Source: Pristiophorus japonicus
Lineage: Eukaryota
Assembly: GCF_044704955.1 (NCBI RefSeq)
Contig: NC_091984.1
Coordinates: 148,242,001-148,306,000 of the forward strand
Direction of reading: 5' to 3'
Length of the DNA stretch: 64,000 nt
Shown: in pieces, positions 40,970-52,039 of the stretch
How positions within the stretch are numbered: position 1 is the first letter of the stretch
Layout of the letters: each line of letters starts with the position of its first letter
Translations under genes and position numbers: made by a program
Notes under the pieces: generated by a model
Told to the model about the DNA's origin: nothing
Seen by the model: the letters and a program-made list of their open reading frames with translations, nothing else
Databases searched by the model: none

Positions 40970-42566
40970 TGTAAGATGTGTGGATTTACCCCTCACACCG
41001 TCCAACAGTTTATAGAGTTCGGACCTGTGGAACAGACAGCTCAAGACAAAAATTTCTGGAATAAGTTCTCTTTACTTAAAATCACCAAGAGGTTACAAGT
41101 AAGTCTCTAATAGTACTGTTACACTCAGTAATCCCGGGTTATAAACAAGCCTCTAATACTAATTTTGAAGCTCTTTTTACACTACAAAACTAGGAGTAAT
41201 GGGCAGTCCCTCAGTGTGTCTGTGTCGCATTCGATGGGAGTAATGGGCAGTCACTCAGTGTGTCCGTGTCCCATTCGATGGGAGTAATGGGCAGTCCCTC
41301 AGTGTGTCCATGTCCCATTCGATGGGAGTAATGGGCAGTCTCTCAGTGTGTCCGTGTCCCATTCGATGGCAGTAATGGGCAGTCCCTCAGTGTGTCCATG
41401 TCCCATTCGATGGGAGTAATGGGCAGTTCCTCAGTGTGGCTGTGTCTCATTCAATGGGAGTAATGGGCAGTCCCTTAGTGTGTCCATGTCCCATTCAATG
41501 GGAGTAATGGGCAGTCCCTCAGTGTGGCTGTGTCTCATTCAATGGGAGTAATGGGCAGTCCCTTAGTGTGTCCATGTCCCATTCAATGGGAGTAATGGGC
41601 AGTCCCTCAGTGTGGCTGTGTCTCATTCAATGGGAGTAATGGGCAGTCCCTTAGTGTGTCCATGTCCCATTCAATGGGAGTAATGGGCAGTCCCTCAGTG
41701 TGTCCATGTCCCATTCGCTGGGAGTAATGGGCAGTCCCTCAGTGTGTCCGTGTCCCATTCGCTGGGAGTAATGGGCAGTCCCTCAGTGTGTCCGTGTCCT
41801 ATTCGATGGGCGTAATGGGCAGTCCCTCAGTGTGTCCGTGTCCCATTCGCTGGGAGTAATGGGCAGTCCCTCAGTGTGTCCATGTCCCATTCGATGGGAG
41901 TAATGTGCAGTCCCTCAGTGTGTTCTTGTCCCACTCAATGGGAGTAATGGGCAGTCCCTCAGTGTGTCCATGTTCCATTTGATGGGAGTAATGGGCAGTC
42001 CCTCAGTGTGTCCGTGTCCCATTCGATGGGAGTAATGGGCAGTCCCTCAGTGTGTCCGTGTCCCATTCGATGGGAGTAATGGGCAGTCCCTCAGTGTGTC
42101 CGTGTCCCATTCGATGGGAGTAATGGGCAGTCCCTCAGTGTGTCCATGTCCCATTCGATGGGAGTAATGGGCAGTCCCTCAGTGTGTCCGTGTCCCATTC
42201 GATGGGAGTAATGGGCAGTCCCTCAGTGTGTCCATGTCTCATTCGATGGGAGGAATGGCCGTAGATGTTCTTCTCCTCTCCTGATCAACCAGCTAGACAG
42301 TTAATCAGTCGAATGCAAAACTGGAGACTTCTTGTGTGCTGATGTTCCTGTTTCTGAGTCTGTTCTCGCAAAGTTCTCACGGTCTGAAGGCCACTATTTC
42401 CCTTACCTGTGAAACACAGCTTTCGAAGTAGCTCAACCACAGGACAGCTTGCAGCGTTCAGCAGCTTTAATGGACATTTGTGCAGCAGAAAGTCCTGTTG
42501 GCCTCGCGAGGCATGCTGGTACATAAAATCTGGTCAAGTTACAGCAAACTTGTACAAAATCTTACC
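40970..42566 (-). mobile_element. LTR-like insertion carrying the 44-bp minisatellite, inside a SINE
   Basis: Inverted termini tGTAAGAT..ATCTTACc, imperfect 4-bp TSD tcac/ccac; flanking SINE-like sequence joins across it. Confidence 0.55.
41193..42258. repeat. 44-bp minisatellite, 24 copies
   Basis: Unit gggagtaatgggcagtccctcagtgtgtccgtgtcccattcgat; exact period 44 from 41195 to 42251. Confidence 0.97.
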
Positions 42567-42709: not shown

Positions 42710-43169
42710 TGTCGAGGAAATTTCTAAGTTAATTAACTCAGGCGGAGGCTTCAGAATCGTGCTTCGAGAGAATTTTATTTTAAAAAGCGAAATATCTCGG
42801 AGAGCCTGCTTGGACCATACCAAGGCAGAAAACTCTCCTGTACAAGCAAATTGTCCCTATCTTTATACAGAAATAGAATACAGAAATAGAAAAGGAATCT
42901 TATTCATTAGTTCCGTGAGTACAAAGGTCGTCTCGGGAGGCACACACTCTATCTGTCCTTGCATAGTTTCTCCCTGTTCACAGTCTGATAAGCAGAGTAT
43001 CAGGAGACTCCCTGTTAATACCGGATAGTCATTTAATTACATTTCTAAGTTTTAAGGCTAAAAAGTGTGGGTGTTGTTCTAGTCCTATTATTTCTTCAAA
43101 TATAGCAAAAACAGAATTCAACCCTTCCCTTTACCATAAGCCATGGATTCATAGATTCTTTCTTCCACA
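42710..43169 (-). repeat. ERV 3' LTR (460 bp)
   Basis: 8 substitutions + 1 indel versus the 5' LTR by manual alignment; preceded on the minus strand by PPT aagaagggaat (43170-43180). Confidence 0.96.
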
Positions 43170-45282
43170 ATTCCCTTCTTGTTGATTTTTTTTTCAGATC
43201 AACACAATTTCCTATATTCTCTTCTTGCGCAAAAGGGGGTTCATACCCTTCAGGATAGGGTCGCATTTTGAGATATTCGTCTTCATCAACCTTTTCCTCT
43301 AAGCAACTTAACCTTCCTTTCATGCACACACTTTTCCTTTCTATTTCGGAGATCAGGCCTATTACTTGACTAATTACATTTTTTTATTTTATCCACATTC
43401 CGCAAAGGATTATTAATAATACAAGCATAACCACACCTACGATTACTATGGGGTGTATAGCAAGCTTCAGTACTGCTGTAGCTTTTGGGGACCATCCGGT
43501 AAACACATCCCACCAGTGGTGTACTGTCAAAGAGGTGACTTCGTCTACAATTCTTACTAGTTGCCCCTTCTTGTAACTCATTTCGACTCTAAATTGGTGG
43601 ATGTTTCTGCCTTGCTTTGACAGAGCTTCCTCAATTTTCTTGTCATTCCGTATCAAATTGTGCAGTCTGGTCAGATTAATTACGGGGGGTAAGGGTTCAA
43701 TCTTGTGCATAGACAGATATTTTTCTACATTTTGCCATTGCCCAAAGGTATAAGTTGTTTTTACTTCAGGGTCATACAGGGAGTAGACTCTTCTCACGCA
43801 TTTATTAATGGGGGGTTTATACAAAATTCCATCCAGAGAGACAGGTTTATTTCCTGTCACACAGACCTCATTCTGTCCTATTTCCGTAATATCAGTGTCA
43901 TTTGTTGGCTTTAATTCCCATTTACATACTCCAATGGAGTGCTGCAGTGAGCATGGTTCGTATATGGCGGTCTGATAGGGACATACCATTCCGAATGGCC
44001 ACCTAGCATCTGGTGATGTGTCATATTCTTCTCATCGACCCAATCTCCTTTAAATTCTGGGTACCAGAATTTCTGTCCAAACAGTTGGGGCATTACTTGG
44101 AACTGACACCAAATTTATTTTCGTGTCTTACTTACTATCTCCACAGTAACTTTACATCCTTTTGAATTACAACTGGTATATCTTTTTTTTGAGGGTTAAT
44201 GGTTAAATTAAGAAGCTTATCCCTTTTGTTAATTTCCAGCAACCTTTCCCATGTGTTAGCATGGAAGGATAATATTTTCCTTTCTAACTCGGCTCTTAAT
44301 AGCTGTCTGATCATTTCTTTAAACAGGCAATGGGTGTACTTGTTACTCCCTGTTGTTCCTTTATTAGGTTCTCTATTTCCTTCTCTACCCTTTCATTCTG
44401 TTGCCAGGTCATTTCATTTAGGACGTAACCTGATATCTGTAATTGCTGTAATCCTTCATCCCAGGCATTTCTGATTTTTATATCTTCCCCTACCAGTCCT
44501 CCGACGGCCTGGATTTTATTTTGTAGGGTCTCAATATCCATGGAGTTCAATGCTCCTATTCCTGCTCCCACTCCACCTAACACAGTCTCTAATACATCCC
44601 GTTTCTTTCTTTGGGGTCTTTCTTTTTCAAAAGATACCTTAACACTGGTTGTGTGGCAACCATCTTCTTTCTTTGGGGGATATTTAATTCGTATTGTTAG
44701 ATTTAATACACCTGGGGATCTTACCACTGGGATGCAAGTGGTCAGTATCCTTTTTAGATGTCCCGGGTCCCGGTCTTCTGGGTGGCCAGATTATTTTACT
44801 GACCATTTTACCACGAATGGGTCTCCTCCATTCACCGGGGTGTTATTCATGCACAACATCCGCTGCCCTTCTACCATACTTGTAAATGAATAAAGGAGGA
44901 AGTCTTTTCTCTCGTCCGGCCCTCCTATGTACCCCCATCTCTTGTTTTTCCCCGTGCTGTGGGTACACTTCATCCACACATCGGCCTGGTATTCTATGAA
45001 CAACTGATACCCTTTCCCCAATATAAACTGGAATTCCCCTCTTTCTTCTTTCATTCCACACGCCTCACATCGTGTCGTAAAGTTCCCTACTTTACAACTT
45101 TGGCCTACTGTGCATATAAAATTGCCTTGTTGCCTTGCACTATTACTTCTTTCCCATACCATATTTCCCTTCCATACTCTTCCTTCTTTTAGAACTTCTT
45201 CCTCCTGCCGGGAGTTCCCTGTCGCTAAAATGATCAGTATACCTAACGTCCATTTATAATTTTTCCAAGAGTCCCTTCCCAT
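43096..45282 (-). pseudogene. env: ERV envelope gene (disrupted by about 3 stops and 2 frameshifts)
   Basis: Signal peptide MGRDSWKNYKWTLGILIILA, furin site RKKR, fusion peptide DVLETVLGGVGAGIGAL, membrane anchor IVIVGVVMLVLLIILCGMW; the tail continues in frame after the TAA at 43384. Confidence 0.9.
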
Positions 45283-45409
45283 CTTCCCTTTCTTGTTTGT
45301 TTCTATACCACTCTTGAATTAAGTCGTTACAATAACAACACGTCCACACGATAGTAACAGTGGCCCAAATAATAAAGGCCCAAACTGGCACACAAATGAG
45401 CTCTGACAT
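45254..45409 (-). CDS. Putative ERV accessory single-pass membrane protein (51 aa)
   Basis: Manual translation MSELICVPVWAFIIWATVTIVWTCCYCNDLIQEWYRNKQEREDGKGLLEKL*; lies between the pol stop and env, overlapping the env ATG by 29 nt. Confidence 0.6.
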   Translation of the reverse strand: MSELICVPVWAFIIWATVTIVWTCCYCNDLIQEWYRNKQEREDGKGLLEKL

Positions 45410-45507
45410 CCGTTCCTGAACTTTTGGGCAGTACTTTCAAGTCCAAATATTTAATTTAATGCAAGAGCAGGTACAGTTCTTCAGCGAGAAGATGGCCTTT
45501 TTCTTAG

Positions 45508-48500
45508 TCAGGCAATCGTAGTACGTCCTGGTTCGATGCCTTTTCTTTTGGCTGTATTTCGTCGGGAAAATAATTTACAATGGGTTGCATGCACCCAATT
45601 TGGATGCTTTTCCAACTTCCGCGCAGTTCGTGTTGTGAGAATTATCTGATATGGTCCTTTCCACCGAGGAGAAAAGGATTCTTTGTTTAATGTTTTTACC
45701 AGCAGTTGATCTCCAGGCCTGAAAGGGTGCATATTTCCTTCCGACGGGGGCACCTGTGTCTGCTTTATTTGTTCATGCAGACTCCTTGCTATTTCACACA
45801 TGGCCTGAGCATACTTTAGTGATTTTTCATCATTCCAAATTAATGCTATTTTTTCAGCTGCCAGTGGTGGTTTTACGCCAGTAGGCATTGGTCTTCCCAA
45901 TAAGGCTTCATGTGGTGTCAAACCAGTGTTTCGGTTTTTCTGGTTTCTCATTGTATACAATACCAATGGTAAGGCATCTGGCCACTTTAGTCCAGTCTCC
46001 TGGCATACCTTGGTAAGGGTAGATTTTATTATCCCATTTACTCTTTCTACCATTCCCGAGGACTGTGGCTGATATGGTATATGTAACTTCCACTGGAAAC
46101 CTAACGCTTCTGCAAGGTTTTGCACTATTTTTCCGGTGAAGTGTGTTCCCCTGTCACTGTTGATTCCCATAGGTATCCCATATCTTGGTACTGTTTCTTT
46201 AAATAGAATTTTTACTACTATTCGGACATCGTCTCTCCTCGTGGCGTACGCTTCTACCCACCTTGTGAACATGTCTATTATGACTAATAGGTACTTAAGA
46301 CCTGATACTGGAGGCGTGTGGATAAAATCAATTTGCAAATTTTCAAAGGGCATACTTGGCTGGGGTAGATGATCATATTCAGCAGGTGTTTTACCTTTGT
46401 TATTTTGTTGACAAATTTGGCATGTTCTCGCAACTTTCTCAATTACTACTGTTATTCCTGGTGCATACCACTGTGCATTAATAGCATGTATCATCCCTCC
46501 TTTGCCCATTTGAGCCTGACCATGTGCTAGGCGAGACAGGGGCAAAAATAGAGATTTAGGGCAAACAGTTCGCCCATCAGGGTGACACCAGATGTCGTTC
46601 TTGAGAAAACAACCCTGGTTTTCCCAAGTTCTTCCTTCCTGCATGGTAACTTGTTGTTGGGCTGTTTTAAGTTGTTGGATGTCAAGTACCTGTGGAGGGG
46701 AGACTGAGACTGCTTGAAGGCAGTCTGCCTGTGCCGAAGTGGCCTGTTTGGCTGCCTCGTCAGCCCTCCTATTTCCTACTGATACTTCATCCTCACCGGT
46801 TGTGTGAGCTGCACATTTGATGACGGCTACCTTACTTGGCAACTGAATGGCATCTAATAGATTAAGTACCAGTTGAGAGTGCTTAATATGCTTTCCATCA
46901 GAGGTGATAAAGCCTCTGTTTTTCCACAGTTGTCCAAAATCATGGACCACACCAAATGCATATCTGGAATCAGTATAGATATTAGCAGTATGATCTTTAG
47001 CTATTATACAAGCTCTAGTGAGGGCAAACAATTCAGCAGCCTGAGCCGAGGTTCCGGGAGGCAGGGCGAATGCTTCAACAGTTTCGTGGGGATTTACAAT
47101 AGCATAGCCTGCCAACAGCAAGTCATCCGACGGCCTATGTGATGATCCATCCGTATAGAGAATAAGATCAGGATTGTCCATGGGCTCTGTGAGCAAATCT
47201 GGTCTTGGTAAGGTGGCTATTTCCACTGTTAACAGACAATCATGCTGGTCTGGATCCTCTATTCTTTAGTAGGAAGAAAGGTGGCTGGGTTTACTACCGG
47301 TGCGCGTCGAAAGGTATAGTTAGGGTGTGACAGCAGTAATACTTCATAACCTGTTCTTCTAGACGCTGTAAAGTGTTGTGTGGCAGCTGAATTCAAAAGT
47401 AATAACACAGCATGGGCTGTAATGACAGCACATAGATAATCCAAAACAATAGGTACCGACTTCTCCACCATGACTGCAGTAGCAGCTACAGCACGTAGAC
47501 ATGCTGGCATTCCCCTTACTACTGGAGGCAGCAAAATCGAATAATAAGCAACTGGTCTATTTCCCCCACCATGTTCGTGGGTTAGTACTGCGGTTGCAAA
47601 TCCTTCTTTCTCATTCACATACATCTGAAAAGGTTTACCATAATTCGGAAGTCCCAACGCCGGAGCATTAGTAATGGCCTCCTTTAACTGTTTAAAAGCC
47701 TCCTCTCTCTCTGGGGTCCACTCCACCTTGGGTGGGGCATCATTTAGGGCAGCTGATCTTAGGACCGCATCCCATTCTCGATAATCGGGGATCCATTGTC
47801 TACAGTACCCAACCATCCCCAAAAATGACAAGATATCCTTCTTTGTCTTTGGTATGGGGGCACTTTGAATTGTCTGAATTCTTTCTGGTCCTAGCTGCCT
47901 CTGCCCTTGAGATATGTGAAAACCCAGGTACTGGACTTGAGTCTGACAAAATTGTAACTTTGGTAACGACACTCGGTGCCCTCTTTCACATAGGTTCTGT
48001 AACAGTTTTAGGGAGTCTTGTACGCACCTGTATCCGTGGCTAGAAGCCACAAGCAAATCGTCCGCATACTGCAACAGCACAGACTGGTCTGATAATGAAC
48101 AGTCGTCAAGGTCTCTTTTTACTGCTGCTGCATATACTGCGGGGCTTTCGGTGTATCCTTGGGGCAATCTGGTCCATGTGTACTGCTGCTTCTTGTGGGT
48201 GAAAGCAAACAGATACTGACTTTCTTGATTTAAGGGATGGAGAAAAAAGCTGAACACAGGTCTATCACAGTAAAGACAGTTGCTGTTGGTGGTATAGCAG
48301 ATAGTATAATGTTGGTGTCCGGTACCACAGGGATGATAGGGACTACTATCTTATTAATAGCTCTCAGATCTTGCACAAATCTCCATTCATTCGGCCTATT
48401 AACCTTTGGTATGGGCAGTATCGGAGTGTTACACGGGCTCTGTGTCTTTTTTAAAACTCCTTGTTCCAACAATGCAGAAATGACTGGCTCTATCCCATTT

Positions 48501-49663
48501 TCTGCCTCTGGAGGCAGTCTGTACTGTCTAATGCTTGGTAACACGGCGTTCTTTATCAATTGTACCCGATGGGGTACTGCAGAATGTACTTGCCCAACAT
48601 GATTCTTATGCTTTGCCCAAAGTTCAGAAGATACTTGATTCAATGTCATTGGCAGCTTTGGGCTTGGTTGTTCCGGGGGTTGCTGTTTTTCAAAAGTGGA
48701 GGCGTGATTTTTACCTTTCCACTGGAGAATCCCCCTGTTGTGGGTGATAAAGTCTATCTGAACATTTTGCAGTTTTATTACTGCCCAAGGTTGATAGCCT
48801 TGTTGCTGTTTTTCTTTTTCTATTCCTACAATCATCGGACCCATATCTTTTGTTTTCGCTGGCGGTTTTGTAGCCAATGTCAGATGGGGTGTCGAGTTCG
48901 CTTCTCTATACCGCTGCTGCTGTAAGGGTGTCAAATCCATGGCTACCCCCAATCCTTCTGGTCCAAAATAAATGTGGGGCGTAGCTTCTACTATTTCTTC
49001 TTTTTTTAAAAAGGATTGTACCAAACACTGGTAAGTTTCAGCTTTTTGTCGAGTGTACCAGGCTGTACAATGAAGCTGAACTGCCTGAATGCTTGTCAAA
49101 ATTATATACATCAATTCTTCAGTATTAGGGTCGATTTTAGCTTTTAAATTTTGTATAACTTCATGTATCAAAGGGGAGTAGAAGTTGCCATTCAATTGCC
49201 AACAATAGAGGGCAGCCTTTTCTTTGTTATCCTCCCTTTTCTCTTCTTTAATCCCATTAAACAACTGATGAATTTTATTTGGAGGGAGCTCCATGTACAT
49301 TCCTTCCTTTGTGCAATAAATTGTGGCTCCTAGTTTGCACAAAGTCTGTCTTCCCAATAAAGGGAGAGGTGTTGTTTTAGAGACTATCAAAGTCTCATCA
49401 TTAACTGGTTGTCCTTCAATTATCAATTTGGTAGGTTCAGATAAAAATTCTTTCATGGGAATACCGGCCACACCCATACTTAAGACGGTGGTGTTGCTTA
49501 CAGGTAATCCCACAGAGGATGGTACAGAAGACATAGTAGCACCGGTATCCACCAGGAATTTCACATAAGTGTCTCCTACTTTTACTACTGCCAAAGGGTT
49601 TTCTTCTATGTCTGCTGATAAGTGGAGGGCTGCCGCCTGTACCACTAAGCCTCCAGGGCATCC
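45508..49663 (-). pseudogene. pol: ERV pro-pol: protease, 2H-like insert, RT, RNase H, integrase (2 frameshifts)
   Basis: FLVDTGA; WRFVQDLR, LPQG, QYADDLL; YTDGS/AQAAEL/YTDSRY; CQIC, LQIDF, SDRGTHF, GMVER, WKGPY; frameshifts near 48240 and 47260. Confidence 0.95.
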
Positions 49664-51307
49664 CTATGCTGATTGGTGCGGGTTGGGGTTAGAGAACGAA
49701 AACTGAGGGGCCAATGAAGGTGGAGGTTTGGGGAAATCCCCTTGTAACCCTCCATCCTGTTTCGGGGGGCATCTGCAATCGCGAGCCCAATGCCCTTTCC
49801 TTCCACAATTTCTACACTCATCTTGGGAGCGGTCTCGTTGGGGCCACTGTCCTCTCCCTCTTCCTCGTCCTCGTCCCCCAAACCCTCCTCTATTATTCTG
49901 TGCCTGTCCTCTTCCCTTTTGCTGATAGTACTGACCTGCTGTTTTAGCCTTATTTTCCTTATAGGTGAATAGTCCCTCCCTATCCATGTTGGCCAAGACT
50001 GTAATTGTTTCCTTCCAGCTTTTTCTTTGCCAGTCCAAAACCTTAATTTTATAGGTTCTCACGTGTTGCGGCAACATATAATTTAACAAGGTTTGCACTG
50101 CCAAAGGTTCATTTTGATCCATTGGTATTGCTGCATGCTCGTCTCAACTATTTTTCCATCTGCCTGCAAAATCTATTATTGATTCTTCTGCTTTCTGCAG
50201 ACAGCGCGTGACTTCCCCTATATCTCCATGCTTTTTAGCTCCCTTTAGTATGGCATCCTTGCCCCTGTGCTGCAACCAATGTTCGCGGGACTCATTTTCT
50301 TCTACCTCATTATCTTCCCGCCAATCTCCGTTTTCGCCGGCGGGTATAGGGAACATATCTTTTACCCCCTGCCAAGAGGACCCATATGCTGCCTGCAGTA
50401 ATAATTTCACATCTCCGGGGAGGGGGTTATAAATGGTACAGGTTTGCTCAAGCCAGTTATGAAAGGCTACTGGCTTCTTAACAGGATTAGGGGTGGCTGA
50501 TATCATATCCCGAGCTTCCAGGGCTTTAGGACAGCCGTGGTTCCAATCATTACACGGGGGGCTTGTGTCGTGGGGGTAGTGGTGGAATCGGCCTGTCTTA
50601 TGGTATTCCTGGTATTCATTCCAGGGTCAGGGTTGGGGTTTTCGCCTTCGGCTCCTCCACTTGCCCCTCCTTCCCCGTTTTCATCCTCTGGTGGGTTCTG
50701 GGGTCGTGGTTGCATTCGTCGCCAAGAGGCCTGATCTAGCTGGGCAGCCACTATTTCTATGATCTCCTGCCAATCATCCGGCTTGGTGGTTGGAAGACGG
50801 GGATATAAGCCGACAGGGGAAGCGGTCATAACTGGGGCTCTCGGGGGGGCTGTAAGAGGGAGGGGGCTTCTCCTTACCCTCCTCCTCTTTCTTTTTATTT
50901 TTAGGGGGCTGGTGCCTTTTTGCCACCTCTGTCCATTTTTTAAAACAATTCTCCATATAATCTTTATCCCAAGTGGGGTCCCCCGCCCCATCTTTGGTGG
51001 TCTGTCTCCATTCCTCAATTAAGGACAATTTAAAACTTCCTCCATATGGCCAATCCCCATCATACCAACCGTACAAATCGCTACTAAACGTTACCGCGTA
51101 TCTGTCGTCTCCTGTTTCTTTAATTACAGTGTCTGCCGGCGAGCCGGGCGGCACAATAGGATCTCCTACCTTCTCTTGTTGCTTTACTACCTTACTGATT
51201 TTTTTCTCAGTCTTAGGATGTACTTTCATTCTTTCAGTTGAGAGGTCGTCTTTCTTTCCTTTTCTAGGAGCTGGGCGCGATCTTTTCTGAAATGAGAGTT
51301 GGGACAA
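49664..51307 (-). pseudogene. gag: ERV gag (2 frameshifts, 1 premature stop)
   Basis: Single CCHC knuckle CRNCGRKGHWARDC, RG-rich NC, MHR-like CLQKAEESIIDFAGR, PPSY and YPRL motifs; ends in a TAG in frame with pro. Confidence 0.9.
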
Positions 51308-51554
51308 TCCTACAAAATATACAATAATTTACAAAGCGCTCAGCTCGGGGTCTCCTTTTGCCTTTTTGTTATTTTAGCTTCTTTGCGGTAGCTACCTTAA
51401 ATTATGCCTCACCCTCCAGGGGATCTCGGCAGCTCGTCCCCCTTTCAGCTAGGACGGCCGAGGCACCTTCCTCCTTTCAGCTAGGAAGGTCCTTAAAATT
51501 CCTCTTTACTCTTTAAAAGTTAAATTTAGTTCTTTTGGATCTCGTTTTTTAGAG

Positions 51555-51573
51555 ATCCTGCCGGACTACGCCA
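51555..51573 (-). other. ERV primer-binding site, tRNA-Ser
   Basis: TGGCGTAGTCCGGCAGGAT = complement of the vertebrate tRNA-Ser 3' end (..AUCCUGCCGACUACGCCA) with one extra C, 5 nt from the LTR. Confidence 0.85.
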
Positions 51574-51578
51574 GAATC

Positions 51579-52039
51579 TGTCGAGGAAATTTCTCAGTTA
51601 ATTAACTCAGGCGGAGGCTTTCAGAGTCGTGCTTCGAGAGAATTTTATTTAAAAAAGCGAAATATCTCGGAGAGCCTGCTTGGACCGTACCAAGGCAGAA
51701 AACTCTCCTGTACAAGCAAAATGTCCCTATCTTTATACAGAAATAGAATACAGAAATAGAAAAGGAATCTTATTCATTAGTTCCGTGAGTACAAAGGTCG
51801 TCTCGGGAGGCACACACTCTATCTGTCCTTGCATAGTTTCTCCCTGTTCACAGTCTGATAAGCAGAATATCAGGAGACTCCCTTTTAATACCGGATAGTC
51901 ATTTAATTACATTTCTAAGTTTTAAGGCTAAAAAGTGTGGGTGTTGTTCTAGTCCTATTATTTCTTCAAATATAGCAAAAACAGAATTTAACCCTTCCCT
52001 TTACCATAAGCCATGGATTCATAGATTCTTTCTTCCACA
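51579..52039 (-). repeat. ERV 5' LTR (461 bp)
   Basis: Direct repeat of 42710-43169; TATAAA and AATAAA on the minus strand. Confidence 0.96.

Follow-up and report, generated by a model that had tools for sequence, protein, structure and literature searches.

Organization of the provirus

The window, by which we mean the whole stretch of 64,000 nucleotides analysed, contains an endogenous retrovirus (ERV) at positions 42710-52039, with all of its parts on the minus strand (-). It is bounded by a 5' LTR (TG...CA, 51579-52039) and a 3' LTR (42710-43169) which differ from each other by 8 mismatches in 460 positions, and a 5-bp target-site duplication, CTGCC, is present both before the 5' LTR and after the 3' LTR. 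Five bases past the 5' LTR, at ~51555-51573, lies a primer-binding-site-like sequence, which resembles the 3' end of tRNA-Ser. Walleye viruses prime with tRNA-His, and no tRNA genes were found within the 64-kb window.

Gag pieces with a single CCHC zinc knuckle (49667-51328; open reading frames and Pfam) are followed by a TAG stop codon (49664-49666) that is in frame with pro-pol. The same in-frame stop is present in the aligned copies, and it is likely a read-through junction. The pol open reading frame (48230-49663, 477 aa) holds a retroviral aspartyl protease (49313-49600, ORF residues 20-115; Pfam RVP, E 7e-10) and the start of the reverse transcriptase (RT), with the Pfam RVT_1 match beginning at residue 418. 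RT, RNase H and integrase occupy 45508-48622 (open reading frames and Pfam), in this copy as separate frames with breaks near 48230 and 47260. Three pieces at 43384-45318 appear, from their position, to be env-like, and the search of this region against Pfam yielded no match of note. An MLV-type RT, RNase H, the single CCHC knuckle and the in-frame gag stop are epsilon-like features, and on these sequence characters the provirus would be an epsilon-like shark retrovirus. Its earlier description as a shark ERV agrees with the closest protein on record, which is 92% identical and bears the UniRef name Pristiophorus japonicus, a sawshark.

Several features of the locus and of the host genome may be mentioned here. 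Gag, pol and env of this provirus are all broken, despite the small number of LTR mismatches. A 44-nt tandem repeat of ~30 units lies just past the 3' LTR, at 41058-42413 of the window. Two other copies, L001 (C8:148.549 Mb) and L003 (C1231), match the window provirus at 99-100% identity across the domain described below and share its 477-aa frame; they likely represent a segmental duplication or an alternate haplotype. At C3:232,761,870-232,920,470 of the host genome more than 20 copies of a piece of this ERV are arranged head-to-tail with a period of ~5.35 kb, and smaller arrays were observed on host contigs C10 and C11.

A 2H domain between protease and RT

From the end of the protease (CKLG, 49339) to the beginning of RT (LWAKH, 48622) the pol frame continues through a segment of ~235 aa, open as the earlier note had reported but somewhat longer than the ~200 aa given there. 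Two HxT motifs are present in it, in frame and 62 residues apart: motif 1, L-H-C-T-A (49061-49075, His codon CAT at 49070-49072), and motif 2, P-H-L-T-L (48875-48889, His codon CAT at 48884-48886). The motifs, first recorded as LHCTA and PHLTLA, their His codons and their spacing were found exactly as previously described. In alignment A2, the rows of which are 16-31% identical to the query except for one close shark protein, the His of motif 1 is present in 74/74 rows and that of motif 2 in 72/74.

Of 20,000 shuffles of 166 aa of the segment, 2.3% contained two loosely defined Hx[TS] motifs at a distance of 55-100 residues and 0.03% contained a pair that also had the hydrophobic context; a chance origin of the motif pair was dismissed because the conservation of both His residues settles the question. 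A third Hx[ST] triplet (HAS, 48704-48706) was set aside as a motif, and is not kept across subfamilies.

The extent of the domain, about 48704-49234 (20 kDa), was set by aligning residues 12-188 of its model to mouse CNPase (2xmi), and we annotate it as a putative CNPase-type 2H phosphoesterase domain inside Pol. It begins with an N-terminal strand, A-L-Y-C-W (49199-49213), in which Tyr is conserved in 66/69 rows and Trp in 69/69, and a helix is predicted past motif 2 (48800-48853; residues 139-156 of the window model and 136-147 of the homologue's). Between the protease and the domain there is a candidate protease cleavage site (49259-49273), with Gln at P2.

Predicted fold

Direct comparisons of sequence gave little. 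The window segment alone yielded no 2H family match in Pfam or, by phmmer, among PDB sequences, and against PF05881, with its cut-off of 25 bits, the window protein gave no match and the homologue P0016 reached 15.7 bits. A region search of 140 candidate proteins (799-2280 aa) likewise gave no match, and in a profile built from alignment A2 columns from RT and protease predominated. A profile of relatives run against PDB sequences placed gRICH first (E 0.0013) and CNPase next (E 0.006).

Structure models were examined for the window domain, at modest confidence (pLDDT 65), and for the teleost homologue P0032 (pLDDT 92.6). In the structural search, the window model was aligned with mouse CNPase 2xmi at Z 14.3 (rmsd 3.7, 171 residues aligned), followed by Acb1 (Z 8.0), ns2 (7.4), VP3 (6.8) and the pox cGAMP PDE (5.8). 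The P0032 model matched CNPase at Z 16.9 (rmsd 3.8, 168 aligned), with a next best score of 8.5; over both models the values were 7.4-7.5 for ns2, 6.4-6.8 for VP3, 7.7-8.0 for Acb1 and 5.8-6.4 for the pox PDE. The top 21 VIA structure matches are taken to be 2H proteins, some of them by their titles.

Among the matches listed by Foldseek against the PDB only CNPase/gRICH appeared (best E 1.2e-5, TM ~0.57). Against viral models its top three were Q9WHI8 of WEHV-1, A4GTG3 of WDSV, and Q2VF30 (E 5e-7 to 7e-7), and the homologue model matched the same three entries (E 2e-16 to 5e-8). We take Q2VF30 to be salmon swim bladder sarcoma virus; Q9WHI8 and A4GTG3 are labelled 'Envelope polyprotein' in the structure library and are assumed here to be Pol. 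Both motifs sit on strands of the window model (E66-72 and E128-133), and the 171 residues aligned with CNPase imply that the two His would point at each other within a single cleft. The best feature match in the ESM Atlas was to tRNA-ligase CPD clusters (0.95, 193/256 features shared).

We conclude that the domain is almost certainly a 2H domain of the fish-retrovirus kind and that it is predicted, from the models, to have a CNPase-type fold. The 2H fold proposed in the earlier note is upheld, with CNPase the top PDB match of both models. It has been stated that a fish retrovirus and WDSV possess 2H domains (PMC9503650, citing Mazumder 2002) and that epsilon-like ERVs of ray-finned fish can encode CNPase (PMC4977317, citing Basta 2009); this agrees with the previous remark that such domains had been noted in fish retroviruses, their function being unsettled. 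The existence of the domain in fish retroviruses is already known, and the shark copy adds a carrier. No functional study of a retroviral 2H domain was found in the literature searched, subscription papers lying largely outside it; the accessible portion of PMC4422223 contains no mention of such a domain, and those of PMC3185748, PMC6307210 and PMC8535693 contain nothing on it.

The shark domain shares its place and its motifs with the 2H domains of fish retroviruses and epsilon-like teleost ERVs such as WDSV and WEHV-1, as seen in ~160 fish ERV proteins. It differs from the teleost forms in coming from a cartilaginous-fish host with OAS genes, in its low identity to them (16-31%) and in an extra predicted helix ahead of motif 1. 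With CNPase and gRICH (2xmi, 1woj, 2i3e; PF05881) it has in common the fold, the H-C-T of motif 1, an aromatic residue at His1+5, a Gly at His2+15 and the helix past motif 2. Unlike them, the retroviral domain is part of a viral polyprotein, has a protease upstream in place of the PNK-like N-domain, falls below the PF05881 cut-off, is only 13-18% identical, and has a motif spacing of ~62 as against 79 in CNPase. The tRNA-healing CPDases of fungal Trl1 and the lancelet (PF08302) resemble it in being the best ESM Atlas match and in the chemistry proposed below; in contrast to these it has no adjoining kinase or ligase domain, and no sequence-level match is shown. MHV ns2, rotavirus VP3-CTD, Acb1 and the penguinpox cGAMP PDE also belong to the 2H superfamily, carry two Hx(T/S) motifs and are of viral origin, but score Z 5.8-8.0, about half the CNPase value, and represent other branches, without alpha7 (PMC5283653).

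Conservation and selection

A phmmer search over 1.84 billion representatives returned 15 matches, one of which, the repeat protein P0008, was spurious and was dropped; 13 distant relatives were found at E 5e-6 to 8e-4. Profile searches returned 97 and 104 proteins. Of the 210 proteins collected, 209 match the core profile, 170 span both motif regions and 160 carry both motifs. These 160 were classed, by our own assignment from names, as teleost (91), cartilaginous fish (3) or none/other (66), so that teleosts account for 91 of the 94 two-motif homologues with fish names. The order protease-2H-RT was seen in 72/72 Pol proteins scorable for both flanking motifs. RT and 2H distances were correlated (Mantel r 0.86, on the 37 rows left after thinning 65). 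In the RT tree, midpoint-rooted and with long rows, the main teleost branch is separate from a group that unites the shark families with a skate ERV (100/100). The wide conservation, the fixed order and the correlated distances together indicate that the domain is old and travels with RT. P0042, a protein assigned by name to the electric ray Narcine bancroftii, carries a 2H domain of teleost type (profile score 199, versus 95 for the sawshark protein), either by a host jump or by contamination.

The family is very numerous in the host genome, where 1261 candidate places for the domain were found; the best 150 of the 1261 were scored, and all are 90-100% identical. Among 30 host copies picked by RT, the His-Cys-Thr of motif 1 is intact in 28 and the second His in 29; one of the misses, L086, has a ~64-base deletion inside the domain and is therefore not scorable. 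With a teleost-like query, one subfamily (70-81% identical) and a second family (~34%) were recovered, and all 30 loci taken with this query keep both motifs at the same spacing.

To estimate selection, 17 copies from the subfamily of the window provirus were compared pairwise with 13 from the 70-81% subfamily. The RT-picked set was used for this purpose in place of a first set, picked by similarity to the domain, which is biased. Between the subfamilies dN/dS was 0.20 for the 2H core (codon bootstrap 0.12-0.32, the bootstrap intervals being too narrow because the pairs are not independent), 0.27 for the whole 2H domain, 0.22 for the protease and 0.14 for the RT start. Among young copies it was 0.49 (0.33-0.75) for the core and 0.63 for the protease, and this rise, alike in both, is attributed to decay after insertion, as predicted. 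These results show that the 2H domain is under purifying selection, like the protease. Conservation of the HxT motifs across ERV copies, which the earlier note had proposed as a check, was observed among homologues (160/170) and host copies (28/30 and 29/30) and is accompanied by the dN/dS of 0.20. Since selection is as strong as on the protease, in teleost and shark retroviruses alike, the domain has a genuine job to do.

Comparison with the CNPase active site

In CNPase, Phe235 and Val321 hold the base and Tyr168 the ribose; His230 donates a proton to the departing 3'-O, with a 2'-phosphate as the product (PMC4643303). In the retroviral domain a Tyr at motif-1 His+5 stands where CNPase has Phe235, and an aromatic residue is found at this position in 158/160 homologues (Tyr 153, Phe 5). 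In the second shark family (~34% identity) it is a Cys, not an aromatic residue, in 3/3 copies looked at. The Tyr of the A-L-Y-C-W strand is, from its position, likely the equivalent of Tyr168; an upstream Tyr/Phe-Trp strand is present in 151/160 homologues. Gly occurs at His2+15 in 155/160.

Past motif 2, both models begin the predicted helix at His2+11/12, and the stretch after His2 aligns without gaps to the host CNP (probability 57%, E 1e-4). As modelled, the helix at 48800-48853 is likely the equivalent of CNPase alpha7, which is said to be unique to CNPase among 2H proteins and to block the side where the viral enzymes bind 2-5A (PMC5283653); a counterpart of the beta5-alpha7 loop is likewise predicted. 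The place of Val321, at His2+12, is taken by Lys or Arg in 146/160 homologues and that of Arg307 by Ala, Val or Thr, not Arg, in the same 160 proteins; because of these two differences the substrate may differ from that of CNPase.

Proposed role in RNA-end healing

A shared fold by itself shows no function, and enzymatic activity is here a prediction from the models. On that basis the domain would probably act as a 2',3'-cyclic-phosphate 3'-phosphodiesterase leaving a 2'-phosphate and a 3'-OH. That its role is the healing of RNA ends is suggested by analogy and put forward tentatively, with slightly less than an even chance of being correct. The explanation as a whole, in which the conserved CNPase-type 2H domain in Pol is a virion-borne enzyme of this kind that heals RNA ends, is one we consider evenly balanced.

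Gag-Pol products are packaged in virions. Read-through of the in-frame gag stop would make the domain, which would then be packaged with Gag-Pol; stop suppression has been predicted for WDSV. The viral protease would free the N-terminal side of the domain at IHQLF, the Gln-P2 site noted above; a cut there is probable because the Gln is kept in 57/68 rows of alignment A2 and WDSV protease sites have Gln at P2 (PMC3185560). At the 2H/RT junction no conserved Gln-P2 site was evident in homologues or shark copies, so the domain may stay on RT, and would remain with or near it in the core. There it would open 2',3'-cyclic phosphates left by metal-independent RNases, yielding 2'-phosphate/3'-OH ends. 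The target would most plausibly be the tRNA primer in the virion or genomic RNA that has been nicked, the 3'-OH then serving in priming or repair. Among the uses considered, RNA-end healing is the likeliest because RT needs a 3'-OH and relatives of CNPase are tRNA-healing enzymes (PMC5434554). Healing of RNA or tRNA-primer ends had been raised as an option in the earlier note, and the CNPase-type fold lends it support at the tentative level given above.

The fixed protease-2H-RT order and the RT-correlated distances are what one would expect of a central component of replication that is passed on together with RT. The presence of the conserved motifs in the second, ~34% identical shark family was counted in favor of an active domain. 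As the window copy is broken, the activity would have belonged to the replicating virus. The healing step in the core is the weakest part of the mechanism. Against it counts the fact that most retroviruses prime without such a domain; in addition, the neighbouring 2'-phosphate may hinder extension by RT. Moreover, only a tiny share of the tRNA in human cells under stress is cleaved at its CCA end, and for vertebrate CNPase no role on tRNA is established (PMC8920990).

Alternative explanations

The domain might instead destroy a cyclic dinucleotide such as 2'3'-cGAMP, either within virions or when made on entry, and so blunt cGAS-STING sensing of reverse-transcribed DNA. Such a target could exist in both teleosts and sharks, as the cGAS-STING module is described as ancient (bioRxiv 693333) and the host has Mab-21-family genes, none of them identified as cGAS. 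The next structural match after CNPase is Acb1 (Z 8.0 and 7.7), and the residue replacing Val321 is basic in the 146 homologues noted above. The Acb1 score is nevertheless half that of CNPase and the pox cGAMP PDE scores still lower (5.8-6.4), and an alpha7-like helix would shut the cleft on one side and keep out any nucleophile bigger than water (PMC5283653). Pol products are also scarce, which would make them a poor source of a scavenger. We consider this use unlikely.

Substrates could also be small molecules, such as mononucleotides or ADPr>p, which are known in vitro substrates of CNPase-type enzymes. Teleost ERVs also captured macro domains (PMC4977317), and a role in ADP-ribose conflicts has been assigned to viral 2H and Macro domains (PMC9503650). 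However, Pfam revealed no macro domain in the provirus, and the fixed place beside RT and the inheritance with RT suit a core role better; small substrates are accordingly a rather unlikely answer.

It is improbable, in our estimation, that the domain chiefly binds RNA or Gag, with catalysis secondary, as would a decoy against the host CNP, the interferon-induced Gag binder that blocks retroviral assembly. CNPase does inhibit lentivirus assembly via Gag (PMC5434554) and CNP is an interferon-stimulated gene (PMC3832489), and the host has a CNP gene; yet the catalytic His and Thr/Ser are the best-kept positions of the domain, as expected for an active enzyme.

The lead reading of the earlier note, an immune antagonist resembling ns2, VP3 or Acb1, is not borne out: the fold is CNPase-type (Z 14.3 versus at most 8.0), an alpha7-like helix is predicted, and the carriers are largely teleost. 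In its 2-5A form, a phosphodiesterase directed against OAS-RNase L like those of coronavirus ns2 and rotavirus VP3, it is very improbable. Its merits are that these enzymes are of the same superfamily (ns2 Z 7.4-7.5, VP3 6.4-6.8) and that the host genome has OAS genes, with 16 exon-level matches, 15 of them in one cluster on contig C8. Because of these OAS genes, a shark-specific use of 2-5A or cGAMP is conceivable. A loose search for RNase L in the host genome found none, and the three KEN-domain matches from a loose search would, by their motif, be IRE1-like and not RNase L. The closest fold is not in the ns2/VP3/AKAP7 branch (Z 6.4-7.5 versus 14.3-16.9 for CNPase), and in CNPase the 2-5A side is blocked by alpha7 (PMC5283653), an equivalent of which is predicted in both models. 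OAS and RNase L are reported lost in teleosts (bioRxiv 10.1101/693333), the source of 91 of the 94 named two-motif homologues, in which the motifs are still kept; as most carriers infect hosts without OAS/RNase L, 2-5A cannot be the shared target. The region C8:218.42-218.60 Mb of the host holds a cluster of several OAS-like genes.

A neutral spacer or decayed captured gene with chance motifs, for which the loose motif pair in 2.3% of shuffles and the core dN/dS of 0.49 (0.33-0.75) among young copies could be cited, is refuted by the predicted CNPase-type fold, by motifs kept at 20-30% identity, by the dN/dS of 0.20 between subfamilies, by the protease-2H-RT order in 72/72 proteins and by the similar rise of the protease (0.63) among young copies, as from decay after insertion.

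Implications

The evidence narrows the job of the domain to CNPase-type chemistry, as predicted, with 2-5A not the shared target. A broader and rather speculative possibility, which we hold to be less probable than the healing role itself, is that an entire aquatic retrovirus clade has, as its fourth enzyme in Pol, a CNPase that was captured and sits N-terminally on RT; it would heal cyclic-phosphate ends of the tRNA primer or viral RNA, provide RT with a 3'-OH and counter RNase-based defence, with or without host OAS. Should the domain prove active, the set of retroviral Pol enzymes would grow by one, and the result would have a bearing on the targets of CNPase itself. If RNA-end healing is true, it would constitute the first RNA-repair step within retroviral reverse transcription and would provide a lead on the natural substrate of vertebrate CNPase.
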